64,000 nucleotides of DNA from Escherichia coli (GTDB taxonomy: Bacteria; Pseudomonadota; Gammaproteobacteria; Enterobacterales; Enterobacteriaceae), in assembly GCF_051903065.1 (NCBI RefSeq), contig NZ_CP178438.1. One strand, 5' to 3'. Below the pieces are notes generated by a model that saw only the letters and a program-made list of their open reading frames with translations, was not told where the DNA came from and searched no databases. The translations under genes and the position numbers were made by a program. Below, in pieces: positions 33,076 through 40,692 of this stretch (position 1 is its first letter; each line of letters starts with the position of its first letter).

Positions 33076-34449
33076 TTAATGCGCTTTTACGGCTTTGGCG
33101 GTTTTCTCTTTAAACAGATAGCCGATACCTAACACGATCAGCCATACCGGGATCAGGTATACCGAAATCGCCATTCCTGGGGTCATCAGCATAATCACCA
33201 GTACCGCCGCCATAAACAGCAGGCAGATCCAGTTACCCAGCGGATAAAGCAGAGCAGGGAAGCGAGTTACCACGCCTTGTTCCTGCTTGGCGCGACGGAA
33301 CTTCATATGCGCCAGACTGATCATCGCCCAGTTGATCACCAGTGCGGATACCACCAGTGCCATTAACAGGCCAAATGCGGATTCCGGAGCAAGATAGTTA
33401 ATCAATACGCACAATGCTGTAACCAGCGCAGACACCAGAATGGTGTTAACCGGTACGCCGCGTTTATCGACAGACGCCAGCGCTTTTGGCGCATTACCCT
33501 GTTGTGCCAGACCAAACAGCATACGGCTGTTGCAATATACGCAGCTGTTGTACACGGAGAGCGCCGCAGTCAGTACCACGATGTTCAGCGCATTCGCCAC
33601 AAAGGTATCGCCTAACTCGTGGAAGATCAGCACAAACGGACTGGTATCGGCGGTAACGCGGGTCCACGGCATCAGTGAGAGCAGAACGGCTAACGAACCA
33701 ATATAGAAAATCAGGATGCGGTAGATAACCTGGTTAGTCGCTTTCGGGATACTTTGCTCCGGGTTATCAGCTTCTGCTGCGGTGATCCCCACCAGTTCCA
33801 GACCACCGAACGAGAACATGATAATCGCCATCATCATCACCAGCCCGGTGAAGCCGTGCGGCAGGAAACCGCCCTGATCCCACAGGTTGCTAACGCTTGC
33901 CTGCGGACCGCCGTTACCACTGAACAGCAGCCAGCCGCCGAAGATGATCATCGCTACTACCGCAATAACTTTGATAATGGCAAACCAGAACTCCATCTCA
34001 CCAAACACTTTTACGTTGGTCAGGTTGATGGCGTTAATCACCACAAAGAACACGGCGGCAGAAACCCAGGTTGGGATTTCCGGATACCAGAACTGAATGT
34101 ATTTACCCACAGCAGTCAGCTCTGCCATGGCAACTAAAACGTACAGTACCCAGTAGTTCCAGCCAGAGGCGAAACCGGCAAAACTGCCCCAGTATTTATA
34201 AGCAAAGTGGCTAAAGGAGCCTGCGACAGGTTCTTCGACCACCATTTCACCCAGCTGACGCATGATCAGAAAGGCGATAAAACCAGCAATGGCGTATCCC
34301 AGGATAATCCCTGGCCCTGCGGACTGTATTACGGAGGCGCTACCCAGGAATAACCCGGTCCCTATCGCGCCACCCAGCGCGATAAGCTGAATATGGCGGT
34401 TTTTAAGGCCGCGCTTTAGCTGCTCGCCGTGCTGTTGACCTTCCATCAT
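33076..34449 (-). CDS. aroP: Aromatic amino acid:H+ symporter AroP (APC family)
   Basis: 457-aa 12-TM permease ORF. Confidence 0.96.
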   Translation of the reverse strand: MMEGQQHGEQLKRGLKNRHIQLIALGGAIGTGLFLGSASVIQSAGPGIILGYAIAGFIAFLIMRQLGEMVVEEPVAGSFSHFAYKYWGSFAGFASGWNYWVLYVLVAMAELTAVGKYIQFWYPEIPTWVSAAVFFVVINAINLTNVKVFGEMEFWFAIIKVIAVVAMIIFGGWLLFSGNGGPQASVSNLWDQGGFLPHGFTGLVMMMAIIMFSFGGLELVGITAAEADNPEQSIPKATNQVIYRILIFYIGSLAVLLSLMPWTRVTADTSPFVLIFHELGDTFVANALNIVVLTAALSVYNSCVYCNSRMLFGLAQQGNAPKALASVDKRGVPVNTILVSALVTALCVLINYLAPESAFGLLMALVVSALVINWAMISLAHMKFRRAKQEQGVVTRFPALLYPLGNWICLLFMAAVLVIMLMTPGMAISVYLIPVWLIVLGIGYLFKEKTAKAVKAH

Positions 34450-34941
34450 GAAACCTCGTGCGGTGATTGTTTTTTTGATCTACGCAGTGATGCGTGTGTA
34501 AGTTTGCAATTCCGTTTGTTGTATTAATTTGTTTACATCAAAGAATTTTGAATTGTTACAAAAAGACTTCCGTCAGATCAAGAATAATGGTATGCGGCAG
34601 CGAATGCACCCGCTTTATGCATGGTTGAAGATGAGTTGCTTAAAAAGAAACCGTTTGTAAAGCTCAGCCTCAACCCCTCTCAATATGCAGAATGAATTTA
34701 AATTCGTTTTAATTGAATTAAAAATCACAAAATTGGTAAGTGAATCGGTTCAATTCGGATTTTTATAGTTTAATAATCGTTAAAAAATCCCTTTCCTACG
34801 TAAAGTCTACATTTGTGCATAGTTACAACTTTGAAACGTTATATATGTCAAGTTGTTAAAATGTGCACAGTTTCATGATTTCAATCAAAACCTGTATGGA
34901 CATAAGGTGAATACTTTGTTACTTTAGCGTCACAGACATGA

Positions 34942-34958
34942 AATTGGTAAGACCAATT
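34942..34958. promoter_or_regulatory. PdhR box (AATTGGTAAGACCAATT palindrome) in the pdhR promoter region
   Basis: Perfect 17-bp palindrome matching the ATTGGT-N3-ACCAAT PdhR operator consensus, 32 bp upstream of pdhR ATG. Confidence 0.8.
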
Positions 34959-34989
34959 GACTTCGGCAAGTGGCTTAAGACAGGAACTC

Positions 34990-35754
34990 ATGGCCTACAG
35001 CAAAATCCGCCAACCAAAACTCTCCGATGTGATTGAGCAGCAACTGGAGTTTTTGATCCTCGAAGGCACTCTCCGCCCGGGCGAAAAACTCCCACCGGAA
35101 CGCGAACTGGCAAAACAGTTTGACGTCTCCCGTCCCTCCTTGCGTGAGGCGATTCAACGTCTCGAAGCGAAGGGCTTGTTGCTTCGTCGCCAGGGTGGCG
35201 GCACTTTTGTCCAGAGCAGCCTATGGCAAAGCTTCAGCGATCCGCTGGTAGAGCTGCTCTCCGACCATCCTGAATCACAGTATGACTTGCTCGAAACACG
35301 ACACGCCCTGGAAGGTATCGCCGCTTATTACGCCGCGCTGCGTAGTACCGATGAAGACAAGGAACGCATCCGTGAACTCCACCACGCCATAGAACTGGCG
35401 CAGCAGTCTGGCGATCTGGACGTGGAATCAAACGCCGTACTCCAGTATCAGATTGCCGTCACCGAAGCGGCCCACAATGTGGTTCTGCTTCATCTGCTAA
35501 GGTGTATGGAGCCGATGTTGGCCCAGAATGTCCGCCAGAACTTCGAATTGCTCTATTCGCGTCGCGAGATGCTGCCGCTGGTGAGTAGTCACCGCACCCG
35601 CATATTTGAAGCGATTATGGCCGGTAAGCCGGAAGAAGCGCGCGAAGCATCGCATCGCCATCTGGCCTTTATCGAAGAAATTTTGCTCGACAGAAGCCGT
35701 GAAGAAAGCCGCCGTGAGCGTTCTCTGCGTCGTCTGGAGCAACGAAAGAATTAG
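34990..35754 (+). CDS. pdhR: Pyruvate dehydrogenase complex repressor PdhR (GntR family)
   Basis: 254-aa product starting [17 protein letters not shown] within the longer ORF; GntR HTH plus FCD domain. Confidence 0.95.
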
Positions 35755-38592: not shown

Positions 38593-39480
38593 ATGGCTAT
38601 CGAAATCAAAGTACCGGACATCGGGGCTGATGAAGTTGAAATCACCGAGATCCTGGTCAAAGTGGGCGACAAAGTTGAAGCCGAACAGTCGCTGATCACC
38701 GTAGAAGGCGACAAAGCCTCTATGGAAGTTCCGTCTCCGCAGGCGGGTATTGTTAAAGAGATCAAAGTCTCTGTTGGCGATAAAACCCAGACCGGCGCAC
38801 TGATTATGATTTTCGATTCCGCCGACGGTGCAGCAGACGCTGCACCTGCTCAGGCAGAAGAGAAGAAAGAAGCAGCTCCGGCAGCAGCACCCGCGGCTGC
38901 GGCGGCAAAAGACGTTAACGTTCCGGATATCGGCAGCGACGAAGTTGAAGTGACCGAAATCCTGGTGAAAGTTGGCGATAAAGTTGAAGCTGAACAGTCG
39001 CTGATCACCGTAGAAGGCGACAAGGCTTCTATGGAAGTTCCGGCTCCGTTTGCAGGTACCGTGAAAGAGATCAAAGTGAACGTGGGTGACAAAGTGTCTA
39101 CCGGCTCGCTGATTATGGTCTTCGAAGTCGCGGGTGAAGCAGGCGCGGCAGCTCCGGCGGCTAAACAGGAAGCGGCTCCGGCAGCGGCCCCTGCACCAGC
39201 AGCTGGCGTGAAAGAAGTTAACGTTCCGGATATCGGCGGTGACGAAGTTGAAGTGACCGAAGTGATGGTGAAAGTGGGCGACAAAGTTGCCGCTGAACAG
39301 TCACTGATTACCGTAGAAGGCGACAAAGCTTCTATGGAAGTTCCGGCGCCGTTTGCAGGCGTCGTGAAGGAACTGAAAGTCAACGTTGGCGATAAAGTGA
39401 AAACTGGCTCGCTGATTATGATCTTCGAAGTTGAAGGCGCAGCGCCTGCGGCAGCTCCTGCGAAACAGGAAGCGGCAGCG
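38593..39480 (+). repeat. Three tandem ~300-bp repeats encoding the three lipoyl domains of AceF
   Basis: Near-identical protein segments ([37 protein letters not shown]) repeated three times. Confidence 0.85.
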
Positions 39481-40485
39481 CCGGCTCCGGCAGCAAAAGC
39501 TGAAGCCCCGGCAGCAGCACAAGCTGCGAAAGCGGAAGGCAAATCTGAATTTGCTGAAAACGACGCTTACGTTCACGCGACTCCGCTGATCCGCCGTCTG
39601 GCACGCGAGTTTGGCGTTAACCTGGCGAAAGTGAAGGGCACTGGCCGTAAAGGTCGTATCCTGCGCGAAGACGTTCAGGCTTACGTGAAAGAAGCTATCA
39701 AACGTGCAGAAGCAGCTCCGGCGGCGACTGGCGGCGGTATCCCAGGCATGCTGCCGTGGCCGAAGGTGGACTTCAGCAAGTTTGGTGAAATCGAAGAAGT
39801 GGAACTGGGCCGCATCCAGAAAATCTCTGGTGCGAACCTGAGCCGTAACTGGGTGATGATCCCGCATGTTACTCACTTCGACAAAACCGATATCACCGAG
39901 CTGGAAGCGTTCCGTAAACAGCAGAACGAAGAAGCGGCGAAACGTAAGCTGGATGTGAAGATCACCCCAGTTGTCTTCATCATGAAAGCCGTTGCTGCAG
40001 CGCTTGAGCAGATGCCTCGCTTCAACAGTTCGCTGTCGGAAGACGGTCAGCGTCTGACCCTGAAGAAATACATCAACATCGGTGTGGCGGTGGATACCCC
40101 GAACGGTCTGGTTGTTCCGGTATTCAAAGACGTCAACAAGAAAGGCATCATCGAGCTGTCTCGCGAGCTGATGACTATTTCTAAGAAAGCGCGTGACGGT
40201 AAGCTGACTGCGGGCGAAATGCAGGGCGGTTGCTTCACCATCTCCAGCATCGGCGGCCTGGGTACTACCCACTTCGCGCCGATTGTGAACGCGCCGGAAG
40301 TGGCTATCCTCGGCGTTTCCAAGTCCGCGATGGAGCCGGTGTGGAATGGTAAAGAGTTCGTGCCGCGTCTGATGCTGCCGATTTCTCTCTCCTTCGACCA
40401 CCGCGTGATCGACGGTGCTGATGGTGCCCGTTTCATTACCATCATTAACAACACGCTGTCTGACATTCGCCGTCTGGTGATGTAA
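38593..40485 (+). CDS. aceF: Dihydrolipoamide acetyltransferase E2 component AceF
   Basis: 630-aa ORF with three tandem lipoyl domains, Ala/Pro-rich linkers and C-terminal catalytic domain (DHRVIDG). Confidence 0.98.
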
Positions 40486-40491
40486 GTAAAA

Positions 40492-40518
40492 GAGCCGGCC
40501 CAACGGCCGGCTTTTTTC
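40492..40518 (+). terminator. Candidate rho-independent terminator after aceF
   Basis: AGCCGGCC-caac-GGCCGGCT hairpin followed by TTTTTT. Confidence 0.65.
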
Positions 40519-40692
40519 TGGTAATCTCATGAATGTATTGAGGTTATTAGCGAATAGACAAATCGGTTGCCGTTTGTTGTTTAAAAATTGTTAACAATTT
40601 TGTAAAATACCGACGGATAGAACGACCCGGTGGATAATGGGCGTCATAAAAAAAACGTCAGACCCGCCGGAGATAAATATATAGAGGTCATG

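Follow-up and report, generated by a model that had tools for sequence, protein, structure and literature searches.

The spacer between aceF and lpd exists in two forms in Escherichia coli, and the form found in the 64-kb stretch of E. coli DNA analysed here (the window) lacks the ERIC/IRU element that occupies part of the lpd leader in K-12. The two alleles differ by replacement of one segment by another, not by a clean insertion or deletion. Taking the evidence together, we consider it highly probable that the window allele is ancestral and that the ERIC replacement in the lpd leader is derived, arose a single time, was spread by recombination and has a small effect. The difference belongs to an ordinary, already known kind of polymorphism. 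What our analysis adds is its polarity, its nature as a replacement, its placement in the 5' UTR, the frequencies of the two alleles and the finding of the same element at the corresponding site of a second genus, all of which is of modest interest. The finding is real, had been rightly interpreted in a preliminary description made from the window alone, is ordinary, and matters little.

Two forms of the aceF-lpd spacer

In the window, aceF (pyruvate dehydrogenase E2) is an open reading frame of 630 aa on the plus strand (38593..40485 including the stop; closest record aceF), followed on the same strand by lpd (lipoamide dehydrogenase E3; 40693..42117 including the stop; closest record lpdA). 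Because aceF ends at 40485 and the ATG of lpd stands at 40693, the spacer comprises 40486..40692, or 207 bp. Window and K-12 proteins are identical at 629/630 positions of AceF and at 474/474 of Lpd, the sole difference being P310Q in the Ala/Pro-rich linker of AceF (39520-39522). In K-12 MG1655 (NC_000913.3), the last base of aceF is 127587 and the first of lpd 127912, which gives a spacer of 324 bp, longer than that of the window by exactly 117 bp. The preliminary description had given a K-12 excess of roughly 117 bp that includes an ERIC/IRU-type element; the number turns out to be exact and the element to be a 127-bp ERIC that aligns gap-free, and the K-12 spacer, checked for being of about 207 bp as well, is not.

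Pairwise alignment finds the two spacers identical except for one segment, which is 30 bp long in the window (ATAATGGGCGTCATAAAAAAAACGTCAGAC, 40634..40663 on the plus strand, present there in one copy) and 147 bp long in K-12 (genome 127736-127882), where it consists of 19 bp (TGGTTAGGGTATTACTTCA), the 127-bp ERIC and 1 bp, with the outline AGGGTATTA...ATRCCCTATGGATTTCTGG...GACGGGTATGA. The replaced segment aside, there are zero substitutions from aceF position -750 to lpd position +300, and the terminator, the promoter, the start-site region, the basal stem of the leader and the ribosome-binding site are base-for-base the same in both alleles. Chance is no concern here, because two sequences are compared directly. 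The difference had been proposed to be a presence/absence polymorphism next to the internal lpd promoter. Two alleles do segregate in the population, but they are related by replacement, 30 bp against 147 bp; and the segment begins at about +20, and therefore lies inside the 5' UTR, downstream of the promoter and outside it.

The remaining architecture of the short spacer is as first proposed: gene coordinates and feature scans bear out a 207-bp spacer with the aceF terminator and an AT-rich lpd promoter, and an inverted-repeat search agrees with the claim that it lacks a REP-like palindrome. The intrinsic terminator of aceF (40488..40518, plus strand) is a hairpin, AAAAGAGCCGGCC/GGCCGGCTTTTTT, followed by a T-run, and is the same in K-12; the inverted-repeat search and the terminator scan returned the repeat at 40488-40517 and a terminator-like stem at 40493-40512. 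Beyond this terminator and a palindrome of 18 bp, rich in A+T, within the promoter, no other inverted repeats were found in the window spacer, and, besides the terminator, no G+C-rich palindrome of ~35 bp of the REP/BIME kind. The promoter scan places the lpd promoter at 40580..40608 on the plus strand, with a -35-like TTTAAA/TTAAAA at 40580/40581 and the -10 TAAAAT at 40603-40608. Between the two lies the palindrome, perfect over its 18 bp (AAAATTGTTAACAATTTT, that is AAAATTGTT|AACAATTTT; 40584-40601) and conserved in most genera examined; it overlaps TGTTAA...TTGTAAA direct repeats, which we take to resemble an ArcA box. The promoter region as a whole is conserved across genera.

In K-12, the ArcA-regulated lpd promoter has its start 195 nt upstream of the ATG, according to the original mapping as reported in PMC2759082. 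Subtracting 117 bp from this distance puts the start in the window at G40615, which falls 7 nt after the -10 TAAAAT, so that the lpd 5' UTR would span 40615..40692 (plus strand) and measure about 78 nt, against 195 nt in K-12. The Shine-Dalgarno sequence AGAGG (40683..40687, plus strand) is the same in both alleles and invariant in 45 orthologues, and the start codon context is likewise shared by both alleles and invariant across genera. The polymorphic segment is transcribed from the lpd promoter and is also contained in the read-through pdhR-aceEF-lpd mRNA.

Both leaders are predicted to keep a 7-bp stem, CCGGUGG/CCGCCGG. In the window, its left arm CCGGTGG lies at 40627..40633 and its right arm CCGCCGG at 40664..40670, both on the plus strand and both predicted in the MFE folds of the two alleles and by RNAalifold. 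The window leader is predicted to carry a small hairpin on this basal stem (GGCGU 40640-40644 paired with ACGUC 40655-40659; -17.7 kcal/mol, z = -0.9), and the K-12 leader a long ERIC hairpin stacked upon it (-81.8 kcal/mol, z = -5.3). The same 7 basal pairs appear in an RNAalifold consensus of 45 ERIC-free orthologues. These orthologues contain no compensatory changes in the basal stem, only one-sided compatible ones (U·G to C-G or U-A, and G-C to G·U), and for want of compensatory double changes we treat the stem as predicted and conserved but unproven. On these folds, a stem-loop is predicted at +13..+56 of the lpd leader, and the segment would form its apical part.

That the K-12 element is an ERIC is apparent from the core AATCCCCAGGAGCTTACATAAGTAAGTGACTGGGGTGAG, which is present in the K-12 aceF-lpd spacer, and from its full length of 127 bp (NC_000913.3 127755-127881), which aligns gap-free to the ERIC of the yeiL-psuT spacer with 92/127 positions identical. 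The canonical copies used for comparison, from the ybhJ-ybhI and yeiL-psuT spacers, have a core identical to that of the lpd copy, whose arms have strongly diverged. The lpd copy is an imperfect palindrome whose arms pair together in the leader fold (RNA folding), and the palindrome is kept because the changes in the arms (ATACCC...GGGTAT) are mutually compatible. Being intergenic between aceF and lpd and downstream of the lpd start site, it lies in the transcribed region. It is not a simple TA-duplicated insertion as expected of a MITE: 30 ancestral bp are missing, and 19 extra bp are present. Near matches to ERIC number a median of 5 per E. coli genome. From the 64-kb window, the ERIC core (central inverted repeat, ERIC-PCR primer region, ...CCCCAGGAGCTTACATAAGTAAGTGACTGGGG...) is absent at <=3 mismatches, and a sensitive blastn search with the K-12 lpd ERIC (word size 7, E <= 1e-3) found no match in it; the window spacer is thus ERIC-free, as had been claimed, and the consensus search suggested for the two strains finds the core in the K-12 spacer and misses it in the window. 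Rfam returned nothing at the gathering threshold over a 5-kb K-12 locus, and sub-threshold matches only, nearly all on the terminator hairpin, over window positions 40400-40800 (E <= 10). A full-text literature search for ERIC with lpd and aceF returned irrelevant papers only.

Several features of the surrounding DNA may be recorded alongside. An IS1A-family element at about 1256-1952 of the window, between cra and mraZ and frameshifted according to the annotation of the closest record, accounts for the multi-copy and plasmid matches of the first 25 kb; at 100%, those 25 kb are matched only by 23CRST027 (human faeces, Ecuador) and 23CRST031, the next best match being 99.1%. The yacH gene (42188-44041, minus strand) is of strain-variable length: it measures 1854 nt in the window, as in K-12, IAI39, 042 and CB9615, whereas CFT073 has a version of 1782 nt and IAI1 and SMS-3-5 have one of 1758 nt. 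CFT073 and SMS-3-5 have, between aroP and pdhR, an island coding for tssD and several bacteriocin-immunity proteins; it is missing from the window, where the two genes are adjacent (about 33076-35754). The aceF gene of CFT073 is a frameshifted pseudogene in the RefSeq annotation.

Frequency and polarity of the two alleles

Within E. coli, and within Escherichia as a whole, the two alleles coexist. The locus is present in 5,424 of 5,426 complete E. coli genomes surveyed, and each of these carries either the short allele (1,991 genomes, 37%) or the ERIC allele (3,433 genomes, ~63%), with no third state among them. The short allele is that of O157:H7, ST131/EC958, Nissle 1917, 83972, CFT073, IAI39, SMS-3-5, 042 and O55:H7 CB9615; the ERIC allele is that of K-12, the B strains, IAI1 and O145:H28 RM13514. 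In terms of phylogroups, the former presumably belongs to B2, D, E and F and the latter to A and B1, O145:H28 being exceptional. Elsewhere in the genus, the ERIC allele occurs in E. albertii and Escherichia sp. E1V33, where it is 100% identical to that of K-12 (in E. albertii over 150 bp), in E. whittamii (98.7% identical to K-12) and in 'E. coli' E69, a separate GTDB species representative (99.3%). The short allele, with Escherichia-type flanks, is also carried by L013 and L073, which represent two other species of the genus. The second of these, Escherichia sp. MOD1-EC7003, has a spacer of 359 bp that combines the short UTR allele with a REP/BIME-like insert of ~150 bp (GCCGGATGCGGCGTGAACGC...TAGGCCTGATAAGCG), which breaks the aceF terminator hairpin. 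Other ERIC loci vary in their occupancy as well, with 289/5426 genomes occupied at yeiL-psuT and 5324/5426 at ybhJ-ybhI.

For the wider comparison, species-representative genomes were scanned for the exact first 26 nt of lpd, which gave 75 loci from Enterobacteriaceae and Edwardsiella; the comparison covers the species so matched, the 26-mer having no match in E. fergusonii, Salmonella enterica subsp. enterica and S. bongori. Of these 75 loci, 72 allowed the end of aceF to be placed; the spacers, from about 70 other species, mostly measure 196-213 bp. Outside Escherichia and one Raoultella lineage, none of the 72 loci contains an ERIC. The 30 bp of the window are homologous to GGATGATGGGCGTAAnAACAATAGCGTCAGAC at the same site in C. 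freundii, Klebsiella (including K. pneumoniae and K. oxytoca), Atlantibacter, Franconibacter and others. A second type of loop, which is shorter, is found in Salmonella and several Citrobacter. Because the 30 bp are shared with other genera and ERIC-free spacers of 196-213 bp prevail, we read the short allele of the window as ancestral and the ERIC allele of K-12 as derived.

Probable origin and spread of the ERIC allele

How might such a replacement have come about? The identical position is occupied by a related ERIC, at 92% identity, in 'Enterobacter sp. 10-1' (L066), a genome that shares 98.2% identity in lpd with Raoultella terrigena; R. terrigena itself has an ERIC at this site too, of which the right half alone is visible in the stored locus. 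Escherichia and L066 have the right junction GGGTATGA|CCGCCGG in common, both lack the ancestral right arm, and both have a 19-bp left extension containing AGGGTATTA; these shared features favour one origin followed by lateral spread via the conserved flanks. We envision that a 147-bp unit, made up of 19 bp, a diverged 127-bp ERIC and 1 bp, took the place of the 30-bp apex of the stem-loop, that the resulting allele arose once and would then have been passed on by homologous recombination in the strongly conserved flanks, and that later recombination may have brought back the native flanks as far as the non-homologous segment. Lateral spread of this kind would account for the substitution-free flanks between the window and K-12. 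Two points speak against this explanation. A single origin would demand transfer between genera, yet the foreign tract in L066 ends within ~8 bp of the element on both sides. The other difficulty is the replacement of the 30 bp itself, the canonical insertion at yeiL-psuT being clean and TA-flanked.

Alternatively, the loop of the UTR may be a preferred target, and Escherichia and the Raoultella lineage may each have acquired the same unusual ERIC subtype there independently, in which case lateral transfer of one allele would not be needed. The flanks of the L066 element are indeed genus-specific right up to the element, and the same spot has been hit in different ways elsewhere: the UTR loop has received insertions of 20-45 bp in Siccibacter (L007, L032) and at two further loci (L018, L025), an Enterobacteriaceae MAG (L064) carries another insertion there, and Buttiauxella has lost the hairpin. 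An identical right junction, the loss of the right arm and a 19-bp left extension would nevertheless be an unlikely coincidence, and no further copy of the lpd subtype was seen in E. coli genomes, where the other ERIC copies resemble the lpd copy in the core only, at 88-90%. We therefore regard two independent entries as unlikely, although the genus-specific flanks keep them in consideration, and continue to prefer a single origin with lateral spread.

Two of these loci deserve a description of their own. In L064, which has a spacer of 396 bp, the insertion of ~190 bp in the UTR loop is unrelated to the ERIC, and its ends, GTACCC...GGGTATAA (TACCC...GGGTA), are like those of the lpd-type ERIC. 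In Buttiauxella gaviniae, B. brennerae and B. agrestis, the whole UTR stem-loop is deleted and the spacer is 153 bp long. The hairpin is thus dispensable in Buttiauxella, where the promoter runs almost straight into the ribosome-binding site.

Possible effect on lpd and relation to known ERIC elements

The two alleles would differ in the length and structure of the lpd leader, and the effect on lpd would probably be small, touching mRNA stability or processing at most. On the simplest reading, the ERIC in the leader would be a neutral or weakly modulating passenger, because promoter, start, basal stem and ribosome-binding site are unchanged and because 37% of E. coli and almost every other genus are ERIC-free. 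It is conceivable, however, that the element is functional and kept by selection, altering the stability, processing or translation of lpd mRNA, so that the dosage of Lpd relative to AceE/AceF and SucA/SucB would differ between strains. Between K-12 and E. albertii, the ERIC has 0 substitutions in 150 bp and the 324-bp spacer has 1 SNP, although lpd is 4.5% different (95.5% identical); this comparison uses lpd identities only, since ungapped identities over 900 bp of aceF are distorted by linker indels and were ignored. Such invariance could mean purifying selection and hence function. The arm changes that preserve the palindrome point the same way, as do ERICs of Yersinia, which affect the stability of co-transcribed mRNAs according to accounts that cite De Gregorio 2005 (PMC2229807; PMC3184786). 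Against this, the ERIC-free spacer is equally conserved between species, so that constraint on the whole spacer, or its exchange by recombination, explains the low divergence equally well; the element is missing from 37% of E. coli and from nearly every other genus; and a global search for RNase III sites in K-12 gives, in its main results table, a site at pdhR-aceE and none in aceF-lpd (PMC5371410). A selected function in the leader accordingly strikes us as rather improbable, and the passenger reading as the simpler one.

A more far-reaching version combines these ideas: the UTR loop would be a hotspot across genera, and the 147-bp unit, exchanged between Escherichia and Raoultella, would be selected because it tunes lpd mRNA and the E3:E1/E2 ratio. 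We judge this combination very unlikely. If it were true, E. coli would keep two functionally different lpd leaders, and the E3:E1/E2 stoichiometry common to the pyruvate and 2-oxoglutarate dehydrogenase complexes would be affected.

The polarity that we favour, with the short allele ancestral, could also be turned around by supposing that the lineage of this strain descends from an ERIC-bearing ancestor and has lost the element through excision or deletion. The ERIC allele of E. albertii, E. whittamii and Escherichia sp. E1V33 may be older than E. coli, as such a loss would need, but the short allele is found in Escherichia lineages L013 and L073 too, and the 30 bp are no deletion scar: they have homologues at this position across genera of the Enterobacteriaceae, which a deletion would be unable to recreate. 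We reject secondary loss as extremely improbable. That the short spacer might be an assembly artefact, a collapsed or skipped repeat, is practically out of the question and refuted by an identical 88-bp junction in 1,991 independent complete genomes and by a spacer of 207 bp in six reference strains as well.

Holding to an ancestral short allele and a derived, laterally spread ERIC allele, we note that at this locus it is K-12 that is derived, and that 37% of the E. coli sequenced, O157:H7 and ST131 among them, have an lpd leader shorter by 117 nt. This is relevant whenever lpd promoter or UTR constructs, primers or regulatory maps are moved from K-12 to other strains. The locus also offers a clean biallelic natural experiment on an ERIC hairpin in the 5' UTR of a gene of central metabolism.

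How does the lpd element compare with what is known of its family? Wilson & Sharp (2006; Mol Biol Evol 23:1156) reportedly compared ERIC loci between sequenced genomes of E. coli and Shigella, with the outcome that many of the loci are polymorphic. The difference between the window and K-12 is of the same kind as this strain-to-strain ERIC polymorphism in E. coli. Reviews trace the ERIC/IRU family to Sharples & Lloyd 1990 and Hulton et al. 1991 and treat it as a MITE, and, where they deal with its presence or absence among E. coli strains, show this to have been long known, citing Wilson & Sharp 2006 too (PMC2229807, PMC3184786). Set against the ArcA-regulated lpd promoter described for K-12 (PMC2759082), that of the window is identical in sequence and drives a leader that would be 117 nt shorter. 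Set against the ERIC/IRU family, the window spacer contains no ERIC, whereas the K-12 lpd copy is like other members in its canonical core, in being a 127-bp imperfect palindrome, and in being intergenic and transcribed. It departs from canonical copies in its ends, which read ATACCC/GGGTAT instead of TATACTC/GAGTATA, with 72% identity overall. It departs from the yeiL-psuT copy, a clean TA-flanked insertion when compared with empty-site strains, in the additional 19 bp on its left and in the 30 bp that it replaced.
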